Positions 12,502 to 61,991 of a DNA stretch of 64,000 nucleotides are shown here, piece by piece (the stretch's first letter is position 1; each line of letters starts with the position of its first letter). The DNA lies in the NCBI GenBank assembly GCA_016748015.1, contig JAAOMT010000602.1, positions 323,696-387,695 of the forward strand, written 5' to 3'. This stretch comes from Geosiphon pyriformis uo1. Its lineage: Eukaryota; Fungi; Glomeromycota. The notes beneath the pieces are model-generated. The model was not told the origin of the DNA. It saw only the letters and a program-made list of their open reading frames with translations, and searched no databases. Both the position numbers and the translations under genes were made by a program.

Positions 12502-12550
<49 letters not shown>

Positions 12551-30990: not shown

Positions 30991-31114
30991 ATTTACGAAA
31001 AATGGGTTATTATTAGATAAAAAAATATTGGTATAGACTAAAAAACAAAAAAAAAAACTTTTTTTTATAGAAAATGCACTTTCTAAAGATTTTTAAAGGT
31101 AGAAGAGAAAGAAG

Positions 31115-38385: not shown

Positions 38386-39352
38386 TGTTACCAACTGAAA
38401 TTTGAGATATTAATTAACATGAAATTACTTTTATAATTCCTATCACTAATTAGCATATATTATTGTTTCAAATCATCACTTATTATTCAATTAAATTATC
38501 GAATATTACCAATTAATTAATAACCCGATTTGTACTATAGAAATTAGGACAATCAAATTACACAATACTCTGAACCAGTTAATATTCAAAAGTTTGCCAA
38601 AATTTGTGTAAAATTTGCTGAAATAATTGATAGTTCACTGAAATATTCAATAGTTCATAGAAATAACTTGTAAGTTTGCCAAAATATACCTTTAATTCGT
38701 CAAAATCATAGTAAAGAAAATAGTTTAAGTTTACAGACTAGTACTACAACAAGTTGTATAAAAGAAGAGCTTCTCTCTTTGAGAAAATGTATTCTTACTT
38801 TTAGATATCTAAATTGAATCAATTCAATACACAAAAACGAAATAAATATCAAATAATTCAAAAATCAACTTCTTAACTATTGTATCTGAAAATTCCCAAA
38901 ACCCAACTAACGTTTTGAAATTGATTAGCTACCAATTTCAGTAAACTGTTAGTGATTTCAGGCCTGGATAGAAAAACGTTTCCCTTGATAAAATCCTATT
39001 TCTTTTATATTTCTTTTATTTTCTTTTCTTTTCTTATTACAATCATTAGGGTAGCCTACAGACAAGATTCCTGTAGAAGAGTTGACTTTCACAGCAAAGT
39101 AACTACACATTTTTAGTGAGCTTCCAGATGAGCAATTTCTGGAAAAGAGTTGATGTTTACTACAATGTAACTACATAAAGTAACTGGCAAGGAATTGGCT
39201 ATTCCATTTATAAGCCCAGCAGTTTAAATTATAGGAGATAATTTGAAGATAAATTCAGTTATTGGAGGTTCAACCACATTCAGAAAATGTGAATTCACAA
39301 CAAACAGGCATTGACAACATTTAAAAAAAGAGACCAAAAACCTCTGGTAATA
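38386..39352 (+). mobile_element. Solo LTR family C, copy 1 (967 bp)
   Basis: Ends TGTTACCA...TGGTAATA; flanks GTGT/GTAT (4-bp TSD, one transition); removal restores LINE ORF1 LNCLC|SGLGL; inverted homolog at 57794-58780; TATA-like TGTATAAAAG near 38755. Confidence 0.85.
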
Positions 39353-40707
39353 GTATTCCGGTTTGGGTTTGTCAGTTCTTTTTTTGTCTTAATGATCAGT
39401 TTGGTTTGGAAAATTGCTATATGCAATGCTTGGGGCATGAACAATTCTATAAAGCAGAAAAATATTGTTTGTTGGCACAAGGATATAGACAATTTGATTT
39501 CGATTATTACTAAAATTAAGTTAAGGAGTAAGATTCATCTGTGGATTGCTAATAGATTTAATGGTGTTTATGTTTTCACTTCTGATGTGAATTCTGGTTA
39601 TTTGGATTCTGGTGTTGCCATTATTATAGACATTTCTTTGGCTTATCATGTATGTAAAATTTTTAAGATATCTGGTCAGCTCCTTTCTGTCAGACTATTT
39701 TTCAAGAATAAACTCTTTGTTTTAATTTTGGGGCTTTATGCTGGTGCCTCTTCTGTGGTTTGATTCTTTTAAGCTGGTGATATTAATTCTATTATTACAA
39801 AGGCTATCAATGAGTCTTTTTTTGTCATCTTTGGTAGTAATTTTAATGAAAATAATTCTCATAAGTATGTGAGTTTCCAAAAATGTCTTGATTTGGAACT
39901 GGTCAATTCTTTGGTAGGTAGCTTGGTTGTAAAGAAACATACTTAAAAAATTTTAAGAGGCATCATAAAGACAATTAATTATGTGTTTGTTTCTCAAAAT
40001 TTGGTTAATACTATAGTACATTATAATATTTTAGAAGTCAGTAAACATTTTGACATAGATTACCGAGCTGTTAATGTGTTTGTAGATTTGGGCAGATTTT
40101 TGGATATACATTTGAACTCTATTTGCAAACAAGTGAACAAGAATTGTTGAAAGTTTGATTTTAGAGGTGCTAATAAGAATAAGTGAAGCAATTTTAGGAA
40201 AGCCACATCAGCCAATACTGTAATGTTCTTTGTTAAGTTTGCCACTGCTGTGAAATTCTCAGATTTAGATATGATATGGGATATTGTTTGTAGGATAATG
40301 ACTCTTTTGGCTAGTGTAATTTTTAAAAAAAAATGGTTCAAAGGTTTTAATGGTGTCTTCATATAGAATTTTTCGAGACTTCATAAGCTAAAGCTTCTGG
40401 TTTCAAAGATTGTCAGGGCATCTTATGAAGAGAGTAATGTTAGTTTTGTCTCCCTTATAAAATGATAGGACTTTTTGGATGATGTTAATTCTTCAATTAT
40501 TCAGAATCTTATAGACACTAGTGTGAGTTTTAATCATGTCTATTCTGCTTTTTATGGTATTAGAAAGTCTTATTGTGTATTCAAGCTTGTTAAATCTCTA
40601 AGGACTAATGAGGCAAACATCAAATCTGCTATAGATAAGAGGATAGAGAGCTTTGTGACAAATAAGAGTCATACTATCAAGAGTGTGCTGGAACACCCCT
40701 TCTACAA

Positions 40708-41588
40708 TGTTACTTATAAAAAAATGAGTATAAGAAAAGTAGTAAAAAAATCATATAAGAAAATAGACCAATAGAAGATTAGTATTTAGCATGGAAGCAC
40801 ATTGCTCAGCAATTTGGAGCAATATTAGAAAACATGGCACATTGCTTAGCAATGTGGAGTGATGTCAAAAATTAGGACACATTGCTTAGCAATATGAGCA
40901 TTGCTCAAAAAATTATAGCACATTACTTGAGAATATAAGCGATTTTGTAGAACATCAATTATGTATATATAGTGGTAACATTAGAAGTAGAAAAGACAGA
41001 ATCCTTTTAGTTAGAGACCTCTCAGTTTAGATTTCATCTAGACAACTTTTCAAATCACAATAAATAACTATTTGCTGTCTAAGAAACCCACTTCCACTAT
41101 CAACACTCTATGTTAATAGTACTTGATACTTAACCACACTGAAACAATAGCTCTTAATCATAGCTATTGATGAGATACTAACTTGTAAATTATCTTGGCT
41201 TATTTCTTACATTTTTTCATTTTCTTTATTTCTTTTTTTTGATTTTTGTTGTATACTAATTGATTAAAAACACTGAATTATTAATGTCATGGATAGCCTG
41301 GTAAAAGACCCAAAAATAAGAGTAGCATTATATATATTATTGAATAGCTTACCAGAAGGGCATGACTGTCAAAATAAATCCAGCCACCAAGCTGAGAAAA
41401 AAATTGGGAAACAACTTACACAAAACTGTGAATAATATCAACAAAGAATCTCTATTTATTATACAAAAGACTTAACTAAAACCTTCAGATACAACCAACA
41501 TACTAGTATTACCACCATTGTCAAGATATTGAGCACCAAGTTATGGATTTGTTATTTGATTTGAGACCTCAAGTAATTACCTGTAACA
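40708..41588 (+). repeat. Gypsy-A 5' LTR (881 bp)
   Basis: TGTTAC...TGTAACA; direct repeat of 61191-61991. Confidence 0.93.
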
Positions 41589-41590
41589 TT

Positions 41591-41606
41591 TGGTGCTCCC
41601 TGTGAG
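41591..41606 (+). promoter_or_regulatory. Gypsy-A primer binding site TGGTGCTCCCTGTGAG
   Basis: Starts with TGG 2 nt after the LTR; nearly identical to the Gypsy-B PBS; primer tRNA not identified (3' end ...GGGAGCACCA). Confidence 0.85.
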
Positions 41607-44600
41607 GTATAATTTTACAAAAAACCAGCACCATCACCACCCATCTAAAAGTGGCAGAACCAGAAAACATAGGAGCTAACCATTTAGAATTTGCAAAATC
41701 TTTATTTCAACACTACTGTCAACATTTGGGATTAATCTTGAATCACATATTAGCAGAATTAGCCTTCAACTTTTACATCAATAAAAGAATTGTCTACTTA
41801 TTAGGAACAGCAACAAATACTGAATCAGCAAGAGAAATTTTTTACAACAAATTAATCCAAAACAGCAGCTTATCAACAAACTATAATTTTGCATCTATCA
41901 TCACTGAAATTAATAAAGAAATTGAACATTACACACAACAGAGATATCCAATCATTTATGCAAGTAAAGGCAAAAAAAAATTACAAACACTAGCAGTAAC
42001 ACCCAAAAGAATATAACCACCCACTTGGAAGAAACACAGAGTTGAATTACCCACCAATCTATCATATTATTATACTTCTGGAAGTGTTATCAATATCACA
42101 TCAATAGGTGCATCCACATCAAACGTGACATCAACATTTGGACAATTCCTATTTCAAAGTAAACAAAGAAAAGAAGACTTATTAGGACCATACAGTGCAT
42201 ATTTTGAAGGATTTAAATTATGATCATCAACATCATTAGGATTTCGATTATCATTACCTCAACTAGATTTCGGAACCACAAGTTTTTGGAAAGTTACAGA
42301 ATCGGAAGAAGAACAAGAAGAAGAGAAAAAAGAATCTGAGGATCAGGAATTTACTTACCAAAACCCAATTCCAAGAAACCCAGAATTTGAAATCCTGAAC
42401 ATTTAAACTTCAAAACATCTAAATCTAGAAAATCCGGAAATTAAAACTCCAAATATTCAGACACTGCCAACTCAGGATAATCGAAACCCCAATCTAACTA
42501 ACCAAATAAACTTACCTCCAGTAATCATCATTGATCAACCATCAATTAATTCAATAGCTGAACCCATATAACAACCACTTCAACAGCCATCACAACAACC
42601 CAATTTAGACCCAATGGCCTACACACCAATTGCAAAACTCAACAATTTTACTGGTGAAGAAGATGACACTCAAGTATGGCTGAACGACGTGGAAAAAGCC
42701 ATCGCAATTAATGGATGGAATGATGCCCGAGCAATGCAAGCCATTCTTTACTTTTTCAAGAATACTGCCAATTCATGGTATTAAAGCTTGATTAATAAAC
42801 CACAAGACTTCAATGTTTTCAAAGTGGAATTCTTAAGATACTTCAGCAACAATAACAGTATCAATTGCCTAGTTAATATATTCACCACTATGAAGTAAGA
42901 AGAAACTGAAGCAGTTACTACTTACCTAGGATGCTTCCATAAAAACCTGCACCAAATCTAAACAATTAACGCCAACTATTTCACAGTGCCACAGATTCTC
43001 AACCAGTTTATCTGTGGCCTATGCAGCAGTATCTTGCAACATATACGTCTATTGTATCCAGGTACTCTTCAAGACACAGTCACATGTGCCAGAGATTTTG
43101 AATCAGCTGAGTCAGAGGCCAACCATGTCCAAGCCATTAATCTAGTAATGAACAAATCATCTGAATTGAATTTCAAATTGGAAAAATTCAGAGAAACAAT
43201 TAATCAAAAGATAGAGGAATACTTAGTTAACAACAATCAGGTCATTTATCAATCATCACAATGATGTGATAATCAAGGAAACTATAATTGTTCACAGAAT
43301 CAACCACATTTATCTTCATTGACTAATCAACAATGGCAACAGGAAACATATATCTGCCACTATTGTGGTAAATAAGAACATATCCAAATCAACTGCAGCT
43401 AGTGTTTAAATAACCAACAATTGGAAAATCTATATGGAAACTCTGATCACTGATTTCCAACTTCGAATCATCAATTAAACTCAGCACAATATCAACTCAC
43501 TTACTTGCCAATGACACAGCAATTAATTTATCAGCCATCAGTATATCAAACTCCAATTTATTAACTGCAGCCTCAACCAATTTACCAGCTGTAGTCATCA
43601 GTAATATATCAACTGCAGTCACAAATAATCTATTAACCTCAACAAATTCAAATGCTGTCCCAAAACTCAGCTCAAATGACATCAAGAAATCCCAGACCCA
43701 GAATTACCCAAAACTAGAAATCAGTGATGGTTATTCACCAACCAATCCCCAACTCCTCTTACCAACTCACTGAATCACACTCTCGGAATTCAAATACCAG
43801 TTCCAACCAAAACCCAAATTCCCAACACTATTTAAGTCTTCTGGTTATCCCAAAAAACACCACTACTAATAACCCAGAACCCAATCAACAAACAACACTT
43901 ATCAACAATATCCCACCAGTAACCATTACCAATGACAAATTGTTAGCCACCATCTTTTCTTTTGAACTCAAGGAAACCACAACAGTACCACTATTCAGTG
44001 GAGCCGCTTTAAAGAAAAAATCCATCATGGCTATGTACACTGATGTAAAAGTTGATAAACACTCCATCAAGCTGATCTTAGATAGTAGATCAGCTGGCAG
44101 CATTATTACAAAACAACTCATGGACCAATTAGGTCACCGAGTTGATTGTACTGCCAGTGCCAGAATTATTACAGCTAATGGAGCGACCAAAACACCCATT
44201 GGAGAAATTGATAATCTACTCATAGAAGTCAATGGCATTATTATACCAATTAAGGTACTGGTAATGAAAGCTACCCAGTACTAGGCCCTTGTTGGCAATA
44301 ACTGGCTGTCCAAAGCCAGCACCATTATAGACTGGAACACTCAAAAAGTCCAACTCAGTCAACATAACCAACATACAAGGGCACCAGCCATCTGTGGTCA
44401 CTTCAAATCAAATTACCACACTACACCCTTGATCGAACTGGAAGAAGAAAAACCAAAACCTACCTGGAAGGCATACCAAGTGTCATGGGCTAACAATGAC
44501 CACAATGAACTGCTGCCAATACTTGCCTGGGATGACAATGACAATAGAAAAGAGAAACAAAAAAAAGAACATACCTGGGGAACTACCATCAACATTTGGA

Positions 44601-45643
44601 CTGACAACAACTAAAGCGAGATGCCACCAATTCTAGACTGAGAAGAAAAAAACAAAGGAAAAAGGAAAGAAAGAGAAGAAGATATACTGGAAGAAACCAC
44701 CACCACAGAAAAAATAACTAGTGGCTGGAAAAGAAAATACTCATGTGAACCAATGAAGAAGCCATCATATATATCTCTCAAATGCAAAGACTGTGGAAAG
44801 AAACTTTCCTCCATGGAAGCTTGGATCGCTCTTGACAAAGACTATTGGACAAAAACCTACTATTACTATAAACCATGCTATAGAGAATGATATGACTACC
44901 CAAAAAGACAAAGCAAGTAGGACAATGAACCATGTCTTACTTGTGACAAACAATTACTTAACGAAGGAATGTGGAATGATATTTCTAGTCAAGGAGGAAC
45001 ATGTGATACTTCATGTTAGTATACAATCCTCATCAGCAATTGGGTGAGTTATGGCATACCAATAACAGCTGTCTGGCACTGAGCAATCTCTTGCTTAAAC
45101 AGCTACCTGTACAACAAGGATGAGATCTGGTGGATGGCAAATGCCAAAGTCAAAGGAGCCATGCCCAGTGAGATCCTGGAAATTAAAAACAACCCATCTA
45201 AACAGGTTGACATTATCCTTGTCCCAAATCCAGATGCTTTTCTCGACATAGAAACCAACCTTGAAGACTTCCATGAACACTACCAAAATTTAGCACCTAT
45301 TAGAGAAGAACAAGAGCAACATTTGGCTCAAATAAACACTAAACTATGTGATTACTGTTTGATCCCATGTGACTTCTAATATTGTAATGAGTGTGACCTC
45401 ATTTACAATTTGCCAATCCGAATGATCTACATGATCCCAGAAGAAGAAGAACCAATTAGCAGCTGCACATCAGAATTAAAATCAACTTTCAATTCCAATT
45501 CAAACTCTGACAATAATAATAATGAAAACACCAGTTCCAATTTCATTCAATATGACAACAACAATAACAACAATTTAAACTCAGATTCAAACTCTAATTT
45601 GAACTATGAACAATATATCGCACTTTCTGACCTCACTAAGGAG

Positions 45644-46078
45644 CAGGAACTGAAATGGTTCAGTGATAATAATGAAGATATCATGCCAGAATGTGCACAT
45701 GATACTAATGCCAGGTTTGATTTAAGATATCCAGAAAAAAATACCATCAAATTGAAACCACATTTGCACACCAGTGTTGATTTCAAAATAGCACTGGAAA
45801 TTTTAACAACAACAATGGTTCAACTAGCATTTAGGAGTAGTTTAGCAAAAAAGGGAATAAACATCAGAAGAGGAATAATTGATGTGAGATACATAGAAAA
45901 TATTATCACAATGCTACAAAATAATTCAGAAAAGACCTATATTATAAAGTCAAATGAAAAGATAGCACAGACAATATTTTTGCCTCTGGTGAAAATAGCT
46001 CAATTAGTATCAGTAGAAAAAAGGGAAGAACTAGGAATAACAGCAAGAGGAATACAGGGATTTGGATCAATGGGTAGA
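45644..46078 (+). CDS. dut: dUTPase domain within Gypsy-A ORF1 (mutated)
   Basis: Five trimeric dUTPase motifs in order: (N)ARFDL, RSSLA, RGIIDVRY, EKIAQ, RGIQGFGSMG. Confidence 0.9.
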
Positions 46079-47208
46079 ATAAATGTACCAATCAATATGG
46101 CAGAAAAAGAAATTGTTGGCCAAGGAGAAATTATCTCAACCAGTCAAGCAATTTTCATTCCATTATATGATCAATACATGGTAACAATAGAGAGAAAAGT
46201 GAAGAATCAGAATCAGATTTTTGAAGCAAAAACAAGCCTTTGTGAATCAGGAGAGATTGGACTCATCAATCTCCACATACCAGCCAAAAGCCACAACCAT
46301 ATCAAAATTCCCATTTACAACACAACAGAAGATGCTATTACAATACCAGAGGGAATCATCATTGGATACTTGAGCACTGGATTAGAAAATCAACCACCAA
46401 GCATTATTCCAGATTTTTCACAGCTATGTAGATATGTAGATATCACATCACAAACAATCTGTGGATGAAATGAATGTTATTTGTTTCAACCAGAACAATT
46501 GAAACAAATAAACATGAGAAATTTGGATCCACTCCAACATATGCAACTCAAGATATTATTCAACAACTTCAATGATATCTTTGCTAGCAAAAATGAATTT
46601 GGTAGAACTGACATCATTGAACATTGGATCAAGACTAAAGATGCTATGCCAATCAAACAATGAGCATACAGAGTACTACCAGCCAGCCATAAGATCATCT
46701 GCCAAAAGATCAACTGAATATTTGACAATGGGCTAATTCAGCCATCTATGAGCCCATGGTCATTACTAGTAGTACTCATCCAAAAGAAGAATGGGAAGAT
46801 CAGATTTTGTGTGGACTACAGAAAACTCAATGAAGTTACTTGTGGAGACAGCTATCCAACTCTGTAAATCCAGGAGCTATTTGATACTTTTGGAGGAAAT
46901 AAATGGTTCTTAATACTAAATCTAAACAGCAAATATTGACAAGTAGTCATGGATCCAGCAGACAAAAAAAAAATGACTTTTATGACAAGAGAAGAGAATT
47001 TTGAGTTTGAAGTCATGCCATTTGGCTTGATGAATGCTCCAGCCACATTTCAACGGTAAATGGAAATAGTATATACTGGCTTATTGTGGAAATCAGTAGT
47101 CATTTATTTAGATGACACCAATGTGTTCTCCAAAACATTTAATAATTATATGCATCATCTACAACAAGTGTTTAAAAGGCTATGATGAGCAAAGCTAAAG
47201 TTAAATAC

Positions 47209-48087
47209 TGTTACAGATGACAATTTCTGTTGTTAGATTAAATAACAAATCCATAACTTGGTGCTCAAATCTAGTTGCAGTTGATAGTGATCTGAAAATT
47301 TGTGCCTGAAAGGTTTGTATCTGAAAGGTTTGATTGAGTTTTTTGTATAATGGACAGAGATTCAATGGTGATAGTTTTATCTATAGCTTTTCGAAACCAC
47401 AGTTTTGTCAATTTCTTTCTCAGCTTGGTGACCAGTATTCCTCCTGGTAAGCTATCTTCAATTGAGTGTTCTACTCTTATTTCTGGGTCTTTTACCAGTC
47501 ACGTTTATTCTGATGTTAGTGCCTTGCACGTTAATTCTTAATAGAGTTAGTAAACAACAATAAAATCAAAGCAAGACAATAAAGAAAAGAAAAAAAATTA
47601 AAGAAAGAAAAAAAATAAGCCAAGGTGAGTTGCAAGTTAGTATTTCATCAATAGCCGTAATTAAGAGCTATTGTTCCAGTATGATCAAGTGTTGATTACT
47701 ATCAACATAAAGTGTTGATAGTGGAAATGGATTTGAGATAACAAATAGTTATTTATTAAATGATTGTGATTTGGAGAGTTGCTTAGATTAAATCTAAACT
47801 AAGAGATCTGTCTTTTCAGCTTCTAATCCTATTGCTATATATACATAATTGAGATTCCTCAATTTCTCAATTCTCCACAACAGGAATCCTGAAATTCCTG
47901 GAATTCTGCAATTTCTTTGAGAGGAATTCTGGAATTCTGAAATCCTGCAATTTCTTGTAAAAATCCTGTAATTTCTGGAATCCTGCAATTCCTGAGAGGA
48001 ATTCTGGAATTCCACATTTTATTACATCTACTTCTGATTGGCTAATAACTATGCTAATATATATTTTCTATATTTCTATAAGTAATA
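47209..48087 (-). repeat. Gypsy-B 3' LTR (879 bp)
   Basis: Direct repeat of 56499-57369; preceded on the minus strand by PPT AAAAGGAGGGAATAA (48088-48102). Confidence 0.93.
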
Positions 48088-48100
48088 TTATTCCCTCCTT

Positions 48101-48751
48101 TTAATATTGAGCTCCATTAAAATCTAACTTTGTTAATTCTCTTTTTTGAAGTATTTTCTGAATTTCATTTTCGAGAATTACTTGTGTTATTTGAGTCTGT
48201 AATTCTTCAAATTGAGCATTGGTGATCTTTTCTAATTGATTACTGGTAACTGTATCCATTGCTTTGTTGAGTAAGATTTCTGGTTGATCCTGAAATGCTG
48301 TGTGTATTTGGTATATGGCTTGGGCCTATGTAGATAAGTTGTTCTTTTCCACAAAATGTTCTAATTGTTGTAGTATTCTTGTGTTAAATAATCATTTTGT
48401 TTTATCCGTATATAGATTCTGGATATTTACATGTTGTCCCAAATAAAAATAACAATAGTTTCTTGGAAATTGTTGTATCCACCAATTCCAAGTTTCTTTA
48501 GTCAACTCTTGATATAGTAACTCTTTTGTCGACTCTTTTATTGCTAATTTTACTTTTGCAATGATTTTGTTCACAGTATTTTCAGTTTTCTTCTGTGTTC
48601 TATGTGGCGATGTCTTTCTAGTGTCTTGATATCAGATGGTTTGTTGATTAATTGTAATTTTCATCTCTTGGTGTTGAATCAATTGAAAAAGTTGTTGTGC
48701 TAGTGAGTGAATATTGTCTGTAATTTCCATTTTTCTGATATTTCTTGTCAT
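48101..48751 (-). pseudogene. Gypsy-B ORF3, unknown protein (217 codons, 3 internal stops)
   Basis: MTRNIRKMEI...LAQQLFQ...ELTKETWNWWIQQFPRNYCYFYLG...DFNGAQY*; homologous to 60523-61178. Confidence 0.75.
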
Positions 48752-48764
48752 ATTTACTATGTCT

Positions 48765-50166
48765 TTATATATTTTTTTGATGGATTAATTAACGTGTTGT
48801 TGTCAATGATGATGATTGGTTTCAAATCTTATGGAATCTTTTCTGGTTGGACTAGTATCCTTTGTACTCCTAATTGTAAAATATTACTGGTAGATGGTGG
48901 TGTGATGTTGTGGTATGATTTCAGTCGATCTCTATGTGCTGCTTTGGTTAAGATTTTGTTATCCAGTCTTAATTTGTAAGCTCCATTTCCTAGAATTTCT
49001 TCTATGTGAAATGGTTTATCCTATTTGGAATCAAATTTTCTACTTAATTGTTTTTTTGCTTAAGTATGATGTAAGAGTACTTTGTCTCCAATTCTGAATT
49101 CAACTGGTTTGTCTGGTAGTTGATTATCATGTCTTTTTTTCTGTTTCTCTTGTGACTTTTGTATATTATCAGTTGCTCTTTTTCATTTGTTTTCCAATGT
49201 TTCCATTAAGTCATATGTTCTTCTTAACAATGTTTCTTGGAAATTCTCTTCTGTTATTGATTCAATTAAATATGTGATAATCTCTATCTCAACTGATAAT
49301 ATTGCTGTTCTACCGTATATCAATTCAAATGGTGTTGCTTGTGTGGTGTCTTGTTTCATTGTCCGATAAGCCAATAATACTGATGATATGAACAAATCTC
49401 ATTTGTCTTGGTTTTTTTGGCTGAGTTTTGCTATTGCTTTACACAATGTTCTATTAAATCTTTCAACTAATCCATTGGTTTGTGGATGGTATGGTGATGA
49501 TAATGGTCTCTTAATTCCGAATTTTTGGCTTAGTTCTGCTAATGTTCTATTCACAAAATGGGTTCCTTGGTCTGATAATAGTTCTTTTGAACATTCATGT
49601 CGACAAATCAAATCTTGATGGACAAATTTGGCAACAGATTCTGCATCCACTCTTTGAGTTGCTTTTGCTTCTGGCCATTTCATAAGGTAGTCCATGGCTA
49701 CTGCAATATATTTGTTGTCTCTGTTGGTAATTGTCAATGGTCCAACTAAATCAATTCCAATGTAGTCAAATGATTGTTTCACTTTGATTGGTCTTAATGG
49801 TTCACTGAGTCTTGTTCCTCTTTTTCTTTGACAAACATTACAATTTTGCACATATTGGATGATGTCTGGATACATTGATGGCCAATAATATTTCTTTCTG
49901 GTTTTTTTTATGGTTGCTTCTTTATGAAAATGTCCTGCAGTTGGATCTGAGTGCATGTTGAACAGTATTGTCTCTTTTTCTGGTTCTGTAATTACTCTGG
50001 TTGGCTGATCTGAATCTTTTCTATTTTTTTGATAAAGTATATTTTGGTGAGTGATAAAATATTTGGATTGTTGTTTGATTTTCTTTTGTTCCAGTTGAGA
50101 TAATTTCTCCTTAAACTGTTGAATATCTATATAATGTTGAAGTTGTTGATATTTTTGTGTGTTCAT
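48765..50166 (-). pseudogene. Gypsy-B integrase ORF (own ATG)
   Basis: MNTQKYQQL start; H-H-C-C (MHSDPTAGH...CNVC), GIDLVGP, SDQGTHF, NGLVERFN; C-terminal GPF/SH3-like region; no chromodomain seen. Confidence 0.9.
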
Positions 50167-52059
50167 CTTTTGTTATATTTTCGTGAGTATTGTTTTAGTT
50201 TTGTTATATTTTTTTGGGTTGAAATGTTCTTAGATTTGTCTCATTCGCAACAAACTGTCAGTATTTCCATTGTCTTTTTCCTTTTTATAATGTATGATAT
50301 AAGTATATGGCGAAAGTGCTATTTTCTATCTTGACTGTCTTCTGTCTCCAAATTCTTGTTTTTGGAGTAATGTTAATCCTTTGTGATCTGTATACATCTC
50401 AAACTTCTGGCTCAAGTATTCTTTCTATTTCATAACTGCCCAGTAGATTGCTAGATGTTCTAATTCTGGTGTTCCATAGTTCTTTTCGGCTGGAGTCAAA
50501 CCTCAACTGACATATGTGACTGAATGTTCTCTTTTATCCAATCTTCTTTGAGATAGTACTGCTCCCAATGCTTGACCTGATGCATCAGTGGTGATAATAA
50601 ATGGTTTACTATGATCTGGATAGATCAATACTGGAGTTTGGATAAGCTTTCTTCTTAAGATGTTAAATGCTTCTTGCTGGGTTTCAGTTCATTTATACTT
50701 TGCATTTTTGGTTTGAAGATCATTGAGTGGTTGTGCTATCTTTGAAAAGTTTTTTATGAAGTGTCTATAATAGTTCGCAAATCTCAAGAATGATTTCAGC
50801 TTGGTTATATTGGTTGGTATTGGAAAGTTTTTTACTATCTCTATTTTCTCTGAATCTGTTTTTATGCCATTTTTGCTAACTATGTATTCCAAGAATTTTA
50901 GTTCTGTTTTGCTGAAAAAACACTTTGTTGCATTCAATTTTAATTTTGCTTGTTATAGTCTTTTGAACACTTGTTGGAGATGATGTAGATAATTATTGAA
51001 TGTTTTTGAGAACACATTGGTGTCATCCAAGTATACAACTACTGATTTCCACAATAAGCTGGTGTACACAATTTCTATTAGCCATTGGAATATAGCTGGA
51101 GTGTTGGTTAAGCTGAATGGCATAACTTCAAACTCAAAGTTTCCCTTTCTTGTGGTAAATACCGTTTTTTCTTTGTCGACTGGATCCATGGCTACTTGCC
51201 AGTAATTACTATCTAAGTCTAATGTTGAGAACCATTTGTTTCTACCAAAAGTGTTGAATAGTTCTTGTATCCATGAAGTTGGATAGCTGTCTTTACAAGT
51301 TACACCATTGAGTTTTCTGTAGTTCACACAAAATTGGATTTTTCTATTTTTCTTATGGATGAGTACTATTGGTAATAACCATGGGCTCATTGATGGCTGA
51401 ATTAGCCCATTGTCAAGCATTTGGTTGATCTCTTAACAGATGATTTCATGGCTGGCTGGTGGTACTCTGTATGCTTGCTGTTTGATTGGCATTGTATCTT
51501 CAGTCTTGATCTGATGCTGGATAATATCAGTTCTACCAAATTCGTTTTCACTAGTGAAGATGTCATTGAAGTTATTGAGTAACATCTTTAGTTGCATCTG
51601 TTGAAGTAAGTCTAGATTTCCCATGTTTATCTGTTCCAATTGTTCTGGCTGTAACAGATAACATTTGTTTTGTTTATAGATGGTTTGTGATGTAATGTCC
51701 ACATATTTACAAAGCTGTGGAAAATCTGGAATGCTGCTTGGTACTTGATTTTCAATTTCTTTGGTTAAATATCCGAAAGTGGTTCCTTCCAGTACCTTTA
51801 CAACATTTCCAGTGTTGTTGTAGATAGAAATTTTGATATGGTTATGGCTCTTGGCTGGTATGTGTAGATTGATAAGTCCAATTTTTCCTGATTTACAAAG
51901 AATTGCTTCTGCTTCAAAAATCTGTTCTTGCTCCTTCTTTCTCCTTTCTATTGCTAACATGTATTGGCTATATGGTGAAATGGAAATTGTTTGACTGGTT
52001 GAAATAATTTCTCCTTGGTCAATAATTTTTTTCTCCACCATATTGACTAGTACATCTAT

Positions 52060-52500
52060 TCTACCCATTGATCTAAATCCCTGTATTCCTCTTGCTGTTA
52101 TCCCTAATTCTTCCCTATTTCTTACTGACACTAATTGAGCTACTTTAACCAGAGATAGGAATATTGTCTGTGCTATCTTTTCATTTGGCTCTATAATATA
52201 AGCCTTTTCTGAGTCATTTTGTAGCATAGTAATAATATTTCCTACATATCCTGTGTCAATTATTCCTCCTCTGATGTTTATTCCTCTTTTCGCTAAACTA
52301 TTCCTAGATGCTAGTTGAACCATTGTTGTTGCTGAAATTTCTAAAGCTACTTTCAGATCAATGCAGATGTGCAAATGTGGTTCCAATTTGATGGCCTCTT
52401 TTCCAGGATATCTCAGATCAAATCCAGCATCTGTATTATGCATACGTTCTGGTATAATACTTTCATTGTTATTGCTAAACCATTTAAGTTCCTGCTTCTT
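52060..52500 (-). CDS. dut: dUTPase domain within Gypsy-B ORF1
   Basis: DAGFDL, SRNSLA, GGIIDTGYVG, EKIAQ, RGIQGFRSMG. Confidence 0.92.
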
Positions 52501-55500
52501 GGTGAGGTCAAAGAGTGTGATATATTGTTCATAGTTTAAATCGGAGTTTAAATCTGAGTTGGAATTGTTGTCATTGTTAATGCCATTTTGAACGGAGCTG
52601 GAACCAGTGTTTTTGTTATTATTTTTGTCGGAGTTTGAATTGGGATTGAAAATCAATTCTGATTCCAATATGCAGCTGCTAATTGGTTTTTCTTCTTCAG
52701 AGATTGTGTAAATCATGCATGGTGGTAGATTGTAAATAAGATCACACTCATTGTAATACTGGAAGTCACATGAGATCAAACAGTAGTCACATAGTTAGGT
52801 GTTTATTTCTTCTAAACGTTGCTTTTATTCTTCTCTAGTGGGTGTTAATCCCTAGTAGTGTTCGTAGAATTGTTCTGGATCTAGAAGATTTATGACTGGT
52901 TCTGGATCCCAGTTAAGTTCTATGGGTTCTGGGGGTTGTTTTTAATCTCTCTAATCTCTTTTAGTGATGCGCCCTTGATTTTGGTGGTCGCCATTTACCA
53001 TATTTTGTCATTGTTGTGTGGACAACTGTCCAATTACTGTACAGTTTTTCTCCAAGTGGCTTCTATTGGCATCTCTTTTCATACCCAGTCGCTGATGAGG
53101 ATTGTGTATTGACATGATACATTACACATTCCTCCATGTTCAGGAATGTTGTTCCATATTTCTTTATTGAGGAAGGTCTCCCCACAAGCTAAACATGGTT
53201 GGTTGTCCTATTTCCCTACTCATTTTAGTCTCCCAAAGTGTTCAAGGATGCATGGGTGGCAATAGAACTTAGTTGCCATTGAATATTCCTCATCATCGCC
53301 ACAGTATGCATCTATTATTAACAATTTCTTGCTGCAATCGATGCATATAAGCTTAGGTTGACAATAGATAGATCGTTGTGGTATAGTGTAGGTATTATAA
53401 ATGATGGTGGTTTGGGTGGTCTCTTCTTCTTTTTCTTTCTCTTTCCCTTTATTTTCTTTGTTTTCTTCCCATTCCCAGCTGGAAGTTGGTTCACTCTTAT
53501 CATTGTTGGTTCATGTTAGATCATTGGTTTCCCAAGTAAGTTTTTCTTTCTGTTTTTCTTTCCTGTTATCATCCCAGGTGAGTATTGGCAACAGTTCATT
53601 ATGGTCAACGTTAGTCCATGACACTTGGTACGCTTTCCAGATAAGTTTCGGCTTCTCTTCCTTGAAGTCAATTAGTGGTGCCACGGTGTTGGTCACCTTG
53701 AAGTGGCCACACATTGCTGGTACTCATGTGTGTCACCCATTCTGGCTGAGTACTAATTCTTGAGTTATCCAATTGATCACAGCATTGGTTTTGAACAGCC
53801 AGTTATTACCAATTAGGGCTTGATATTGGGTGGCATCTATTACTAGAACTTTAATGGGTACTATGATACTATTGATTTCTATAGAGAAATCATCTATCTC
53901 ATTGATAGGTGTTTTTGTGGCACCATCAGCAGTGATAATTCTAGTGCTGACAGCTCAATCAACTCGGTGATCTAATTGATCCATAAGTTGTTGTGTGATA
54001 ATGCTGCCTGCTAAACCACTGTCAAGAATGAGTTTAATAGTGTGTTTATCAACTTTTGCATCAGTGTACATGGCGGTAATTAGTTTCTCTTCAAGGGCAG
54101 CACTACTGAATAATGGTGTGTTGGATGATTCTTCGAGTTTAAATGGAAAAATTGCTGTTAACAATTTGTCATTTGTGATGGTTGTTGGAGGTATGTTGCT
54201 GGTAAGTGGCTGCTGTTGGTTGAATTCCAGTTTGTTGGTTTGGGCATCTTCTAAAGTAACCAGAAGACTTAGATAGTTCTGAAAATTTGGGTTTTGGATG
54301 GAACCAATACCCAGATTCTACTGTCGAGAGCCTAATGGTTGGTAAGAGGAGCTGAGAATCAGTTGATGAACAACTATTGCCAATCTCCAGTTTTGAGTAA
54401 TTCTAGGTCTTGGGTTTCCTGATGTCATTTGAGTGGGTTTTTGAGGTGGTGTTTGAATTGGTTGTTGGGGCTGATAAATTATTTGGGATTGCAGCTGATA
54501 GATTACTGGTAGCTGTGGTTGATAAATTGGAGGTTGATATACTGGCAGTTGATAGATTGGTTGCTGCATCATTGGCAGATAAGTGGTTTGATATTGGTCT
54601 TGATTTGGGTAGCGATTCTGAGTCTGAAATCTGTGATTGGGGTTTCAATATTGATTTTTCGATCGTGAATTGTTGCTATAAAATCTGCAGTCTGCTCTTA
54701 TGTGTCTTTGTTTACCACAGTTGTGGCAAACACGTATTTTTGGCTGCCATGGTTGATTAGGTGCTGCTGATGATGATAATGGATGCGACTGATTTTGGAA
54801 ACAATTCGTATTTCCTGGATTATTGTGTCATTGTGGTGGTTGATAAATTGTGTGATTGTTAGCTAAGTATTCCTCTAATTTTTGATTAATTGAATTACTG
54901 GATTGTTTCAATTTGGAATCCAATTCAGATGATCCATTCATCATTAGGTTCATGGCATGGGCATGATTGGCTTCTAATTTGGCAGATTCAAAATTTCTGG
55001 CATGTGTAACTGCGTCCTGGAGAGTGGTTGGATACAATGGGCATACATGTTGCAGGATGCTACTGCACAGACCACAGATAAATTGATTGAGAATTTGTGG
55101 TGCTGTGAAATAATTAACATCAATTGCTTGGATTTGTTGCAGATTTCTATAGAAGCGTTCCAGATATGTGGTAACTGCTTCAGTTTCTCCTTGTTTAATT
55201 GTAGTGAAAGTGTTGGCTAATCTGTTGATGCTGTTGTTATTGCTAAAGTATTTCAAAAATTCTAGTTTGAAGGCATTGAAATTTTGGGGTTTGTCAATTA
55301 GGCTTTGATACCATGAGTCCGCTGTATTCTTAAGAAAATAGGGTATGGCTTATATGGCTCTGGCATCATTCTATTTGTTGGCTGCGATGGCTTTTTCTAC
55401 ATCATTTAGCCAAACTTGTGCATTGTCCTTTTTGCCAGTAAATTTGTCAAGCTTCACAATTGGTGCATATGCCATTTTTGTTGTTGCTGTGGTAGAAGTT

Positions 55501-56480
55501 GTTGTTATTGTTGAGGCAGTACTGGGAGTGGTTGTTGATTTTGTTGGTTCGGTGTTTGGATGGGCTGGCCAATTGGTTCTACTGGTAGTTGATCAATAAC
55601 AATAACTGGAAGTAAGTGCTGATTAATTACTTTGGGGTTTTGATTTTGTGGTGCTTGAATATTTAGGGTTTTGATTTCCAGATTTTCTCACTAAGTTTGA
55701 ACATTTGGGGTTCCAAATTCCGGGTTTTCAAGGATTGGGTTTTGGTAAGTAAATTCTTGATCTTCCGATTTTTCTTCCTTTTCTTCTTCAGATAGTTCCC
55801 ACAGAGTAGTGGTTCCAAAGTCTGGTTGAGACGGTGATAATCAAATTCCTGATGGTATTAGTGATCACGATTTAAATCCTTCAAAATATTTGCCATATGG
55901 TCTTAGTAGATCTGTTTTCTTTTGTTTACTTTGGAATGAAAATTGTCTGAATGTTGATATCATGTTTGATGTGGACACACTTGCTAATGTTATATTGATG
56001 GCACTTCCTGGTGTGTAGTAATAGGATGGAGCAGTTGGTGATTCAATTTTTGTTTTCTTCCAAGTGGATGGTTGTATCCTTTTGGGTGTTATTGCTGGTG
56101 TTTGTAGTTTTCTTTTCCCTTTACTGGCATAAGTAATTGAATATCTTTGTTGGATGTGATGTTCAATTTCTTTGTTGATCTCAGTAATGATAGATGCAAA
56201 ATTATAATTTGTTGGTAAGCTGGTATTTTGAATCAATTTGCTGTAGAAGGTTTCTTTTGCTAATTCAGTGTTTACTGATGTTCCTAATAAGTAGGTGATT
56301 CTCTCATTGACGTAGAAATTGAAGGCTGATTCTGCAGATATGTGATTATGGTTTAATCCCAAGTGTTGACAGTAATATTGAAATAAGGATTTTGCAAATC
56401 CTAAATGGTTTGCTCCTATGTTTTCTGATTCTGCCACTTTTGGATGAAGTTGTTGGTGCTGATTCTCTGTAGAATTATAC

Positions 56481-56496
56481 CTTACAGGGAGCACCA
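56481..56496 (-). promoter_or_regulatory. Gypsy-B primer binding site TGGTGCTCCCTGTAAG
   Basis: 2 nt inside the 5' LTR boundary; matches the Gypsy-A PBS at 15 of 16 positions. Confidence 0.85.
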
Positions 56497-56498
56497 AA

Positions 56499-57369
56499 TA
56501 TTACAGATGACAATTTTTGTTGTTGGATTAAATAACAAACCCATAACTTGGTGCTCAAATCTAGTTGCAGTTGATAGTAATCTGAAGATTTGTGCCTGAA
56601 AAGTTTGTATTTGAAGGGTTTGGTTGAGTTCTTTGTATAATGGACAGAGATTCAATGATGATAGTTTTATCCATAGCTTCCCAAAACTGCAGTTTTGTCA
56701 ATTTCTTTCTCAGCTTGGTGGCCAGTATTCCTCTTGGTAAGCTATCCTCAATTGAGTGTTCTACCCTTATTTCTGGGTCTTTTACCAGTCATGTTTATTC
56801 TGATGTCAGTGCTTTGCATGTTAATCCTCAATAGAGTTAGTAAACAACAATAAAATCAAAGCAAGACAATAAAGAAAAGAAAAAAAAAATAAGCCAAAGT
56901 AAGTTACAAGTTAGTATTCCATTAATAGCCATAATCAAGAGCTATTGTTCTAATGTGGTTAAGTGTCAATTACTATCAACATGAAATGTTGATAGTGGAA
57001 ATGGATTTGAGATAACAAATAGTTATTTATTAAATGATTGTGATTTGGAGAGTTGCTTAGATTAAATCTAAACTGAGAGATCTGTCTTTTCAGCTTCTAA
57101 TCTTACTGCTATATATACATAATTGAGATTCCTCAATTTCTCAATTCTCCACAACAGGAATCCTGGAATTCCTGGAATTCTGCAATTTCTTTGAGAGGAA
57201 TTCTGGAATTCTGGAATTCTGGAATCCTGTGATTCCTTGTAAGAATCCTGTAATTTCTGGAATCCTGCAATTCCTGAGAGGAATTCTGGAATTCCACATT
57301 TTACTACATCTACTTCTGATTGGTTAATAACTATGCTAATATATATTCCCTATATTTCTATGAGTAACA
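56499..57369 (-). repeat. Gypsy-B 5' LTR (871 bp)
   Basis: Direct repeat of 47209-48087; U3 carries a GGAATTC(C/T) array. Confidence 0.93.
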
Positions 57370-57793
57370 ACACCAATAAGTGCTTCTTTGACAAGACAGA
57401 ATTGAACTTTTTAGGACACATAGTAAGCAAAGATGACATCAAAACAGATCCAGAAAAAATAGAGATAGTCAAGAACTTTCCAATACCAACCAATGTGATG
57501 GAGTTAAAGTCATTTTTGGAATTTGCAGGCTATTATTGACACTTTATCAAAAACTTTTCCAAGATAGTCCAACCACTTAATCATCTCCAAACCAAGAATG
57601 TGAAATATGAATAGACAAAAGCACAACAAGAAGCTTTTGATATTCTAAGAAAAAAGCTTATACAAGCTCCAGTACTGATCTATCTGAATCACAACAAACC
57701 ATTCATCATTACCACCGATGTATCAGACCAAGCATTAGGAGCAGTACTGTCACAAAAAGGACTGAATAGAAAAGAACATCCAGTCATATATGC

Positions 57794-58780
57794 TGTTACC
57801 AGAGGTTTTTGGTCTTTTTTCTTAAATGTTGTTAATGCCTGTTTGCTGTGAATTCACGTTTTCCAGATGTGGTTGAACCTCCAGTAACTAAATTTATCTT
57901 CAAATTATCTCCTATAATTTGAACTGCTGGACTTATAAGTGGAATGGCCAATTCCATGCCAGTTGCTTTGTGTAGTTACATTGTAGTAAATATCAACTTT
58001 TTCCTAGGAATTGCTCATTTGAAAGCTCACTAAGAATGTGTAATTACTTTGCTGTGAAAGTCAACTCTTCTATAAGAATTTTCATCTGTAGGCTATCCAA
58101 CTGATTTATAATAAGAAAAGAAAGAGAATAAAAGAAATGTAAAAGAAAAATAAAAACTGATGATTTATGGAAGTCATTTCGAATCCAGGCCTGGAAGTGC
58201 TTTAACAGTTTACTGAAATTGGTAGCTAGTTAATTTCAAACTGTTAGTAGGAATTGGTTAATTTCAAGGGAAATAATTAAGAATTTGGCTTTTCGAATTT
58301 ATTTGATATTTATTTTGTTATTGTGTATAAGGGATGATTCTAATTGTTAAATCTAAAGTGAGATATATTTTCTCAAAAAGAGAAGCTCTTCTTTTATACA
58401 ACTTGTCATAACACTATTTTATGAACTTGAACTTTGCTATTTTTTACAATTTCACTAAACTAAAGATATATTTCGGCGAACTACAAGTTATTTCTGTGAA
58501 CTGTTAGATATTTCAGTAAACTTATCAATTATTTTGGCAAATTTCTACAAATTTTGGCGAACTTTTTGAATGTTACATAGTTCAGAGTATTGCATGATTG
58601 ATTATCATAATTAGGTTACATTTATGTTATGTATAAATTAGATTATTAATTAAATGATAATTTCAGACATTTTGCTAATGTAATAAGTAATAATTTGAAA
58701 TAATAATATATGCTAATTAATAATAGGAATTATAAAGATAATTTCATTCTAAATAATATCTTTAATTTTGTCTGATAATA
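57794..58780 (-). mobile_element. Solo LTR family C, copy 2 (987 bp)
   Basis: TGTTACCA...TGATAATA on +; exact TSD ATGC (57790-57793 and 58781-58784); removal restores RNase H HPVIYA|S.GLTPA; reverse complement of 38386-39352. Confidence 0.87.
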
Positions 58781-59125
58781 ATGCTAGCTAAGGTTTAACT
58801 CCAGCCAAAAAAAACTATGAAACACCAGAATTAAAACACTTAGCAATCTATTGGGCAGTCATGAAATGAAAAGAATACTTAAGCCAGAGGTTTGAGATGT
58901 ACACAGATCACAAAAGATTAACATCACTCCAAAAACAAGAATTTGGAGACAGAAGACAGTCAAGATAGAAAATAGCACTTGTGTCATATACTTATACTAT
59001 ACATTATAAAAAAGGAAAAGACAATAGAAATGCCAATGGTTTGTTATGAATAAGACAAATCTAAGAACATTTCAATCCAAAAATATAATAAAACCAAACC
59101 AAACTCAATGAAAATATAACAAAAA

Positions 59126-60484
59126 ATGAACACACAAAAATACCAACAACTCAAATATTATATAGATACTCAACAGTTCAAAGAAAAATTATCTCAATCA
59201 GAACAAAATAGTATCAAACAACAATCAAAATAATTTATCACTTACCAAAACATACTTTATTGAAAGAACAAAAAAGATACAAATCAACCAACCAGAGTAA
59301 TTACAGAGCCAGAAAAAGAGACAGTACTATTTAACATGCACTCAGATTCAACAGCAGGACATTTTTATAAAAAAACAACTATAGAAAAAATTAGAAAAAA
59401 ATACTATTGACCATTAATGTATCCAAACATCATTCTCCAAAATTGTAATGCTTGTCAAAGAAGAGAAGGAACCAGACCCAGTGAACCACTGAGACCAATC
59501 AAAGTAGGACAACCATTTGATTACATTGGAATTGACTTAGTTGGACTATTAACAATTACCAGCAAAAGGAACAGATACATTGCAGTAGCCATGGACTATC
59601 TCACTAAATGGCCGGAAGCAAAAGCAATTCAAAGAGCAGATACAGAATTCATTTATCAAGATCTGATTTGTCGACATAAATGTCCAAAAAAATTATTATC
59701 AGACCAAGGAACTCACTTTGTAAACAGAACACTAGCAGAATTAAGTCAAAAATTTGGGATAAAAAGACTATTATCATTACTATATCATCTACAAACCAAT
59801 GGACTAGTTGAAAGATTCAATAAAATATTGTGTGAAACAATTACCAAAATCAGTTAAGAAAACCAACACAAATGTGATTTGATTATACCATCAATATTAT
59901 TTGCTTATTGAACAATAAAACAAGACACTATACAAGCAACACCATTTAAATTAGTATACAGTAAAACAGCAATATTACCAGTTAAGATAGAAGTTAAAAC
60001 ATATCCAACAGAACCAATAATGGAAGATAATTTCCAAAAAACATTGTTAAAAAGAACATATGACTTAATGGAGACACTAAAAAACACATGGCAAAGAGCA
60101 GCTAATAACATTCAAAAGTCACAAAAAAAGCAAAAAAAACAACATGATAACCAATTACCAGATAAACCAGTTGAATTCAAGATTGAAAACAAAGTACTTT
60201 TACATCATACCAAAACAGAAAAACAATAAAGTGGAAAATTCGACCCCAAATAGGATGGACTATTTTACATAGAAGAAATTCTAGGAAATGGAGCTTATAA
60301 ATTAAAATGGGACAACAAAATTTTAGCCAAAGCAGCACATAGTGATCGACTAAAACCATATCACCAAATAGTATCATCATCCACCAATAACATTCCACAA
60401 CTGAGAGTACAACAAATACTAGTCCAACCAAATAAGATTCCATGAGATCTGGAACCAATCATAATCATTGGACCAAACACATAA
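59126..60484 (+). pseudogene. Gypsy-A integrase ORF (own ATG)
   Basis: MNTQKYQQL start; CNAC, GIDLVG, SDQGTHF, NGLVERFN, KFDPK.DG.F, ends EPIIIIGPNT*. Confidence 0.9.
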
Positions 60485-60522
60485 AATCAAACAATAAAAG
60501 AGTATATAAAAAAACAGTATAC

Positions 60523-61178
60523 ATGACAAAAGCAACCAAGAAAATGGAAATACCAAATCATATTTACACCATAGCTCAACAATTGTTCCAGACTTTAAGT
60601 CAACAACTTTTAGACATGAAAGTTATTGTTAACAACCAAACAATTTGCTATTGAAACACCAAAAGAAAGACAAAGAATACACCATATCAGCAGTTACCAA
60701 AAAAGAATAAAAACTGTTAGATAACATAATAGAAAAAGTCAAAAACACTTTTGGGAAAATACCTATTATGGCACCAATAAAAGAACTTACAAAAAAGAAT
60801 TGGAAGCAATGGACAGAACAACTTCCAATATCATACTGTTACTACCAGTTGGATCGAAAGTTGAATATTCAGAAGTTGTATATCAACAAATCCAAGAGAA
60901 TATTTAACCAAACCATAATACAGCAAATTGAAGAATTTATTGAAAAAAAAACAAACTCAACATTATATGTAAAAACAATTTACCGACTACACAACATATT
61001 TCAGAACTATTCAAAAATACTGTTACACTCTGACATGGAAATCATAACCATTAACCAATGGGGAAGAATGAACAATGCACAAGTCAAAACCAAACGAGCC
61101 AAAATTGAACAAACAGTACTTGAAAAAGAAGTCTTAGACTTAATTCAAAATGAAGATTTTGATGGGGCTCAATATTAA
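60523..61178 (+). pseudogene. Gypsy-A ORF3, unknown protein (~218 codons, one stop and one frameshift)
   Basis: MTKATKKMEI...IAQQLFQ...ELTKKNWKQWTEQLPISYCYYQL...DFDGAQY*; homologous to Gypsy-B ORF3. Confidence 0.75.
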
Positions 61179-61190
61179 AGGAAAAGATAA
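61177..61190 (+). promoter_or_regulatory. Gypsy-A polypurine tract
   Basis: AAAGGAAAAGATAA immediately before the 3' LTR; G>A-eroded version of the Gypsy-B PPT. Confidence 0.75.
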
Positions 61191-61991
61191 TGTTACTCAT
61201 AGAAAAATGAGTATAAGAAAAGTAGTAAAAAAATCATATAAAAAAATAGACCAATAGGAGATTAGTATTTAGCATGGAAGCATATTGTTCAGTAATGTGA
61301 TCATTGTTCAAAAAATCATAGCATATTGTTCAAGAATATAAGTGATCTCGTAGAACATCAATTATGTATATATAGTGGTAACATTAGAAGTAGAAAAAAC
61401 AAAATCTTTTTAGTTAGAGACCTCTCAGTTTAGATTTTACCTAGACAATTTTTCAAATCATAATAAATAACTATTTGCTGTCTAAGAAACTTACTTCCAC
61501 TATCAACACTCTATGTTGATAGTACTTGATACTTAACCACACTGGAACAATAGCTCTTGATTACGGCTATTAATGGGATACTAACTTGCAAATTGCCTTG
61601 GCTTATTTCTTACATTTCTTTATTTTCTTTATTTCTTTTCTTTGATTTTTGTTGTATACTAATTGATTAAAAGCGCTGAGTTATTGACATCATGGATAGC
61701 CTAGTAAAAGACCCAGAAATAAGGATAGCATTATATATATTATTGGATAGCTTACCAGAAGGGCATAACTGCCAGAATAAATCTGACCACCAAGCTGAGA
61801 AAGAAATTGGAAAACAACTTACACAAAACTGTGAATAACATCAACAAAGAATCTCTGTCTATTATACAAAGGACTCAACCAAAACCTTCAAATACAACCA
61901 ACATACCAGTATTACTAGCATTATCAAGATATTGAGCACCAAGTTACGGATTTGTTATTTGATTTAAAACCCCAAATAATCACTTGTAACA
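61191..61991 (+). repeat. Gypsy-A 3' LTR (801 bp)
   Basis: Direct repeat of 40708-41588 lacking about 80 bp of U3 tandem units. Confidence 0.93.

Follow-up and report, generated by a model that had tools for sequence, protein, structure and literature searches.

Integrase normally enters retroelement particles as part of Pol. Additions to the basic Gypsy layout are already in print, among them a dUTPase between the protease (PR) and the reverse transcriptase (RT), extra open reading frames (ORFs) and 4-bp target-site duplications (TSDs) (PMC2864245, PMC5408684, PMC6431247, PMC12440569). Among fungal Gypsy elements, this position of the dUTPase is stated for PosPlaTy3-5 (PMC2864245). We analysed a 64,000-nt stretch of the Geosiphon pyriformis genome (hereafter the window; contig JAAOMT010000602.1, 323,696 to 387,695), which carries two diverged copies, A and B, of a Ty3/Gypsy-type element with long terminal repeats (LTRs), in which the integrase lies beyond a stop codon and begins with its own ATG. 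The original prediction, made from the letters of the window, had proposed a candidate undescribed lineage. As far as the split goes, no Gypsy elements with integrase in an ORF of its own are described in the literature searched (which took in few subscription papers; Repbase, GyDB, the curated transposable-element library for arbuscular mycorrhizal fungi of PMC11952901 and supplements lay outside its scope). The proposal does not hold for the dUTPase, the extra ORFs or the 4-bp TSDs, and the last of these, which had been presented as a departure from the Gypsy norm, are not unusual, the normal range being 4–6 bp (PMC12440569).

Two copies of a Ty3/Gypsy-type element

Self-comparison of the window, inspection of the flanks and Pfam searches bear out the expected order in both diverged copies, from LTR and primer-binding site (PBS) to polypurine tract (PPT) and LTR, with 4-bp TSDs and lengths close to the ~10.2 kb foreseen. 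The features are as follows, in window coordinates.

40708–61991, + strand: copy A, whole element, 10,128 nt minus inserts (self-comparison and flank inspection)
40708–41588, + strand: copy A 5′ LTR, TG..CA, preceded by TSD ACAA
41591–41607, + strand: copy A PBS (TGG...), 2 nt beyond the LTR
41651–42613, + strand: copy A N-terminal extension of 321 codons without in-frame ATG, probably begun at a GTG in strong context
42614–43420, + strand: copy A Gag with its own ATG, a Ty3-type capsid and a single CCHC knuckle
44042–44311, + strand: copy A aspartic protease (Pfam)
44762–45460, + strand: copy A Cys-cluster region with CxxC pairs in three groups, predicted to bind zinc
45683–46069, + strand: copy A dUTPase (Pfam E 1.8e-17; motifs)
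46577–59064, + strand: copy A RT–RNase H in three pieces (46577–47208, 57374–57793, 58785–59061), TAA at 59062–59064
59065–59125, + strand: copy A spacer, non-coding, 61 nt
59126–60526, + strand: copy A integrase cistron, own ATG, HHCC, DD35E, without chromodomain; final TGA overlaps the ORF3 ATG
60523–61178, + strand: copy A ORF3, an orphan with one frameshift; product soluble and mostly helical
61177–61187, + strand: copy A PPT
61191–61991, + strand: copy A 3′ LTR, followed by TSD ACAA
47209–57369, − strand: copy B, whole element, 10,161 nt, nested in the RT of copy A
56499–57369, − strand: copy B 5′ LTR
50230–56437, − strand: copy B extension (GTG 56437), Gag (ATG 55475), PR, Cys region, dUTPase, RT and RNase H; TAA at 50232–50230
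48748–50166, − strand: copy B integrase cistron, ATG 50166, 63 nt past the stop of RNase H; the spacer holds a second in-frame TAA
48751–48101, − strand: copy B ORF3, 216 aa
47209–48087, − strand: copy B 3′ LTR; PPT 48102–48091 just ahead of it
57794–58780, strand not given: solo LTR of another family in the copy A RNase H, TSD ATGC/ATGC

The TSD of copy B reads ATAC/ACAC. Excision of copy B with one 4-bp copy restores the RT frame of copy A, and excision of the solo LTR at 57794–58780 with one 4-bp copy restores its RNase H frame. Once the inserts are removed, copy A is free of frameshifts from 41609 to the RNase H stop; copy B has two decay frameshifts, one ahead of Gag and one in the Cys region. 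The copies are 74.6% identical to each other, and a later insertion of copy B is in line with LTR–LTR identities of 93.2% in copy B and 90.4% in copy A.

Catalytic motifs are still recognisable in both copies, and the Pfam matches run in the order Retrotrans_gag/Ty3_capsid, aspartic protease, dUTPase, RVT_1, RT_RNaseH, Integrase_H2C2 and rve. The anticipated triple Cys cluster is present in the form of CxxC pairs. The lack of a chromodomain was confirmed for the copy A integrase, where Pfam gave no match at E ≤ 0.1, and the integrase frame ends ~50 aa beyond the SH3-like region in both copies. An attempt to match the copy A PBS to a primer tRNA gave no identification. Two of the proposed boundaries stood in part. 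The in-frame extension of about 320 aa exists, at 321 codons, but not with an ATG start, as copy A has no in-frame ATG; and the integrase and ORF3 cistrons are both present, but instead of a gap between them the integrase TGA overlaps the ORF3 ATG in both copies. Between dUTPase and RT, a 129-aa segment (46073–46460) without a Pfam match is kept between the copies, with a ratio of nonsynonymous to synonymous differences (pN/pS) of 0.44, and may be an extra domain.

TG..CA LTRs, PBS, PPT, 4-bp TSDs, the order PR–RT–RNase H–integrase, a Ty3-type capsid and RNase H, and an HHCC and DD35E integrase all place the element with Ty3/Gypsy. Because its integrase is not the C-terminal part of Pol, being preceded by a stop and begun by its own ATG in copies A and B and in two metagenome loci described below (L005 and L068), we class it as a Gypsy-type variant and not as a canonical member. 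A chromovirus was rejected for want of a chromodomain at the integrase C-terminus, and so was Gmr1-like Gypsy, which we take to be the name of the clade with integrase before RT, as the integrase here is not upstream of RT.

Separation of integrase from RNase H

In both copies a TAA stands four codons past the RNase H end motif and is followed by the integrase ATG after 61 nt (copy A, 59126) or 63 nt (copy B, 50166). The original prediction relied on the arrangement being seen in two copies. The architecture is indeed common to both, but as proof of a split the pair is weak, because A and B share ten other in-frame stops, eight in the polyprotein and two inside the integrase, which probably reflect parallel decay of Trp and Arg codons. 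The RNase H stop is nevertheless the sole TAA/TAA among 78 CAA/TAA codon pairs between the copies, and from the observed codon rates a parallel CAA-to-TAA change at one given site is expected in ~0.5% of cases. At the copy B stop (50230–50232) no alternative letter occurs among the five contig rows listed, all of which lie at least 33 letters from an end, a result that speaks neither for nor against the split. The spacer varies among the family contigs listed, being shorter than in copy B by 2 nt (12 contigs) or 32 nt (two single contigs), with loose ends that imply a difference of about −33 nt; the reading frame across it is thus not conserved. Many family copies seem to carry a shorter spacer than copy B. 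Within the copy B spacer, 50168–50215 is a duplication with a 31-nt period, where summed contig depth falls.

The best match of the integrase among solved structures is Ty3 Gag-Pol (E 1.6e-23). A decayed motif that may be GPY/F occurs at the expected place, with an SH3_Tf2-1 match below the cut-off (E 0.015), and viral contigs gave only three weak integrase matches.

A protein search with the copy B RT–RNase H returned 2319 proteins, the best 120 of which were analysed; 118 entered the tree, two short matches being dropped. In the FastTree phylogeny both window copies fall with 23 proteins in a 25-row branch (support 96), and none of the 23 has integrase homology: 11 end at most 13 aa from the matched RNase H end, and 12 bear an unrelated tail of 62–343 aa. 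One of the proteins, P0182, stops inside RNase H, and its cluster mate P0319 ends at the RNase H motif; seven members of one cluster are each 1321 aa long. All 82 integrase-bearing proteins lie outside the branch, along with 13 that lack integrase. These 13, which have longer tails, and six loci flagged as carrying integrase after a stop sit among fused elements and were read as truncated or decayed (L057 and L083 were inspected). IQ-TREE, run on a 49-row subset, recovered a 23-row branch at 93/97 in which 0/21 other members have a fused integrase. The rows of both trees are search relatives, with no named GyDB, Repbase or REXdb reference clades among them. A dUTPase between PR and RT is also present in branch members P0187 and P0195/P0314.

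A subgroup of the branch (P0181, P0185, P0188, P0190, P0192, P0193, P0196, P0197, P0199, P0201 and P0216) has a tail of 160–340 aa beyond RNase H without a Pfam match. The tails of two inspected members of the long-tailed subgroup contain a Cys/His-rich motif.

A scan of 3 of the 64 parts of a metagenome collection yielded 80 loci, nine of which fall inside the branch. L005 and L068, the only branch loci that show an integrase, read from the RNase H stop through a spacer (30 and 110 nt, respectively) to an integrase whose first Met aligns with that of A and B; L005, like copy B, has a second in-frame stop in the spacer. Four of the five loci flagged as having integrase before RT form a separate branch. 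L005 is intact and, ahead of Gag and in frame with it, has a long region of Cys-rich repeats (L005:1–1700); its PR–RT–RNase H occupies a separate frame that overlaps the end of Gag.

The question is settled by these intact relatives and not by the A/B pair, since the proteins of the RT branch have no fused integrase and two loci show stop, spacer and Met in succession. The split is very probably genuine and, as the relatives read, it is lineage-wide. The family itself is clearly abundant: 27,080 contig records from one public run match a 2.4-kb piece of copy B at ≥80%, a figure that is not a copy number. A search with the Cys/dUTPase region gave 87 named homologs, every one a G. pyriformis gene model (37–77% identity), and pieces of the family are annotated as hypothetical host genes.

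An AUG-poor extension of Gag

Between the PBS and the Gag ATG the Gag reading frame is open, with 5 stops in 341 codons against 16–25 in the other frames. Over all frames, the 1025-nt leader contains two ATGs in copy A and five in copy B, where 13.1 and 15.5 are expected (P ≤ 0.001); in 11 further regions tested, ATG depletion was never significant (lowest P 0.06). The pN/pS of the extension is 0.30–0.51. Gene models with the Gag start motif number 31, and in 18 of them the extension is joined in frame; the remaining 13 have the Gag Met as first residue. Where the conserved extension starts, both copies have a GTG with A at −3 and G at +4, and five gene models have Val there. The extensions of 12 relatives, 1711 residues in all, contain no Met where 28.5 would be expected, a count inflated by relatedness, low-complexity regions and gene-caller starts. 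As the extension is selected and yet AUG-poor, and free of Met in the 12 relatives, the simplest reading that suggests itself is a near-cognate GUG start combined with leaky scanning; translation from a non-AUG start is, in our estimate, the probable case.

No Atlas match to the extension was found at 0.9, and it has no transmembrane segment. The model of the Cys region (pLDDT 59.8) gave only weak zinc-finger-like matches, confined to its first 45 residues.

ORF3

ORF3 encodes ~216 aa. Its ATG is overlapped by the TGA of the integrase frame (ATGA) in both copies, and it ends at the PPT. In frame, its pN/pS is 0.44–0.48, against 0.67–1.43 in shifted frames and 0.71–0.97 in the LTR control. The substitution pattern shows purifying selection on the extension, the Cys region and ORF3 alike, although values below 1 arise partly from transition bias, as the LTR control indicates. 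There are 86 ORF3 homologs, of which 26 start at its N-terminus and 16 end at its C-terminal motif, and at least four subfamilies can be told apart by their N-termini. Ten homologs were traced to their records. Eight of them belong by name to G. pyriformis, another comes from the window itself, and the last is the ENA protein P0166 (234 aa, 27%).

ORF3 is a real reading frame, conserved across several Geosiphon subfamilies, and it seems to be family-specific. L068 has a different ORF downstream of its integrase, and the ORF3 profile matched 0 of the 1375 ORFs of the 80 metagenome loci. The label of a three-cistron, accessory-rich lineage, as first proposed, therefore suits the Geosiphon families and not the whole clade.

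No Pfam family matched ORF3 above the cut-off, and its model (pLDDT 67.5) had no match in the PDB, in the wide VIA (best Z 4.3) or among viral structures; a weak Atlas lead at 0.90 points to a Mucoromycota cluster of hypothetical proteins. There is no hydrophobic segment, the maximal 19-residue hydropathy being 0.2–1.2 in five ORF3 sequences, and an Env-like protein was ruled out because hydropathy gives neither a signal peptide nor a transmembrane anchor. Blank family and fold searches with ORF3, the Cys region and the extension do not show new folds.

Proposed expression of the separate cistrons

The best overall explanation, which we hold with a little more conviction than doubt, is that A and B are dead copies of an abundant Ty3/Gypsy-type family with a split integrase, expressed by leaky scanning and restart. 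One genomic RNA would give extended and normal Gag-Pol by leaky scanning, and integrase and ORF3 by restart after each stop. Ribosomes would start sometimes at GTG 41651 and mostly at the Gag ATG, and the resulting single Gag–PR–dUTPase–RT–RNase H protein would be cut by PR and form particles, in which the dUTPase would reduce dUTP during reverse transcription. Integrase would be made at a lower level, by reinitiation 30–63 nt beyond the stop, and packaged non-covalently; a cistron of its own would cut the integrase dose in an element without a Gag/Pol frameshift. ORF3, reached by AUGA stop-restart, may act as a soluble accessory factor. Both devices have precedents, as extended Gag of murine leukaemia virus (MuLV) initiates at CUG (PMC5778647) and stop-restart at UAAUG/AUGA is known in viruses and in the non-LTR element SART1 (PMC10275272). 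Only tentatively would we go further and propose an undescribed, widespread branch of Ty3/Gypsy that combines a non-AUG extended Gag-Pol, an AUG-purged leader, chained stop-restart and integrase supplied in trans.

Several observations weigh against this account. The RNase H/integrase junction has a spacer (61–63 nt in A and B, 30 nt in L005 and 110 nt in L068) instead of a stop/start overlap, so coupled reinitiation suits it less well. In both copies the PBS is followed by AG|GT, a possible donor, and the ORF3 ATG is preceded at 5 nt by a YAG, which makes splicing a live alternative. A and B by themselves are weak proof of the split, the position of the integrase stop is blurred by copy-specific earlier stops, the junction is visible as DNA in only two metagenome loci, and L004 and L015 have no integrase in the ~1 kb past RNase H. 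In the IQ-TREE phylogeny the bootstrap of the 23-row branch stays under 95; P0265 is placed outside it, and copies A and B stand on a long branch. The extension of L005 contains Mets; the inflated Met-free count, the transition bias in pN/pS and the blank ORF3 profile search among the metagenome loci belong on the same side.

Four other readings bear on the same evidence. That the split and ORF3 are decay artefacts of an ordinary continuous pol gains some substance from the ten other in-frame stops shared by A and B in coding regions, but intact relatives end at RNase H, the parallel CAA-to-TAA change at a given site has its ~0.5% expectation, and ORF3 has 86 homologs with shared termini and an in-frame pN/pS of 0.44–0.48; this reading is largely refuted and strikes us as extremely improbable. 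An integrase that is still fused, by stop-codon readthrough or by a frameshift at the junction, would suit the spacers of copy B (63 nt) and L005 (30 nt), which are multiples of three. Each of these has two in-frame stops, however, the spacers of A (61 nt), L068 (110 nt) and the family contigs are out of frame, and Met is kept at the same aligned start in A, B, L005 and L068, so we consider fusion very unlikely. More serious is the same layout with integrase, ORF3 or both translated from subgenomic RNAs that arise by splicing or from an internal promoter, in the manner of retrovirus-like env/ORF3 genes. The AG|GT directly past the PBS occupies what we take to be the position of the retroviral major donor. 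Besides the YAG ahead of ORF3, an AG immediately precedes the integrase ATG in copy B, spacer length varies freely, and splicing is the usual route to ORF3 expression in LTR elements (PMC5408684). Yet the candidate integrase acceptor is an AAG in an A-rich tract that is absent in copy A, and splicing has no need of the ATGA overlap between integrase and ORF3 found in both copies. We regard this layout as possible rather than probable; the choice of reinitiation over splicing or an internal promoter is itself evenly balanced.

The remaining reading, compatible with the preferred one of dead copies with a split integrase, leaky scanning and restart, is that the extra modules (extension, Cys clusters, dUTPase and ORF3) counter silencing or mutation by the host, as originally predicted. 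The modules are under purifying selection in a genome that strips CpG from repeats (observed/expected 0.12–0.22). No family or fold ties any of them to defence, none being assignable for ORF3 or the Cys region, and the copies were heavily mutated regardless, transitions making up 76/77 and 58/59 of the LTR differences. Repeat-induced point mutation was rejected, as TpA/ApT is 0.68–0.70 and decay consists almost wholly of transitions with CpG loss (observed/expected 0.14–0.22); the absence of its pattern likewise speaks against counter-defence. A dUTPase acts on the dUTP pool at reverse transcription and leaves later genomic C-to-T change unaffected, so it would not prevent decay of the type observed. 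The extension also lacks a transmembrane segment, unlike MuLV glycogag, whose topology presumably includes one. On the favourable side, glycogag is an extended Gag that counters restriction (PMC5120145), and in a related fungus transposable elements carry CG methylation (bioRxiv 10.1101/2021.03.30.436303). As a whole, counter-defence found no support here, and we judge it improbable.

Surroundings in the window

Copy A interrupts a decayed LINE-like element (39400–40707 and 61996–64000, + strand; endonuclease–RT by eye), whose frame is restored when A is excised. A second decayed LINE-like element (24400–31100, − strand) is 66% identical to this host of A, and its long frame appears to end in an RNase H-like region. 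A second solo LTR at 38386–39352 is 80% identical to the one in copy A, in opposite orientation and with a 4-bp TSD (one mismatch). Four insertions in the window have 4-bp TSDs, three of which alternate purine and pyrimidine. About 5 kb at 31000–36000 has 8–15% GC and is possibly an extremely decayed repeat, and a 338-codon open frame at 12444–13460, which is Ser/Gly-rich at its start and normal in CpG content, is probably a host gene.

Comparison with known systems

A lineage with a separately encoded integrase must solve dosage and packaging differently, and its intact relatives make this testable in yeast; the AUG-poor in-frame extension is a second, separate oddity of translation. LTR elements make up 41.2% of the G. 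pyriformis genome (PMC11952901), and with the 27,080 contig records this makes the present family probably a major share of that LTR expansion.

Among dUTPase-bearing fungal Gypsy elements, PosPlaTy3-5, the Phanerochaete elements and Tuber Tmt1 resemble the present family in that domain (PMC2864245). They come from a chromovirus survey, in whose cited passages the dUTPase is a Pol domain and no separate integrase is mentioned, whereas the family described here has no chromodomain. The bdelloid rotifer elements Juno, Vesta and TelKA likewise have a dUTPase in pol and, in some families, a family-specific ORF3 of ~210–230 aa (PMC5408684). As described there, integrase is part of their pol, and their ORF3s belong to the env, GDSL, DEDDy or transmembrane/coiled-coil types; the ORF3 found here has no transmembrane segment and no Pfam match. 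MuLV glyco-Gag offers a parallel for the extension, as an in-frame addition to Gag from a near-cognate codon in strong context, a start that we infer here (PMC5778647), but the MuLV extension has 88 residues and a CUG start, as against 321 codons, a GTG, no hydrophobic segment and unrelated sequence. The AUGA overlap at the integrase/ORF3 junction resembles the stop-restart sites of caliciviruses, influenza B, hypovirus CHV1 and SART1 (PMC10275272), whereas the RNase H/integrase junction has no overlap. Troyka, another divergent LTR lineage near Gypsy, was ruled out: as reported, it has CG..CG ends, 3-bp TSDs and animal hosts (PMC12440569), against TG..CA-type ends and 4-bp TSDs here. Kuafuorterviruses are reported as animal elements (PMC11673190). 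Ty3 (Metaviridae) itself is alike in LTRs, PBS, PPT, 4-bp TSD, capsid, domain order and integrase match, and differs from a family with a separate integrase that has its own Met, Gag and Pol in one frame, an AUG-poor extension and a third ORF. Against this background the feature is, on the evidence of sequence, real, and what appears to be new in it is the integrase split within an element of Ty3/Gypsy type.

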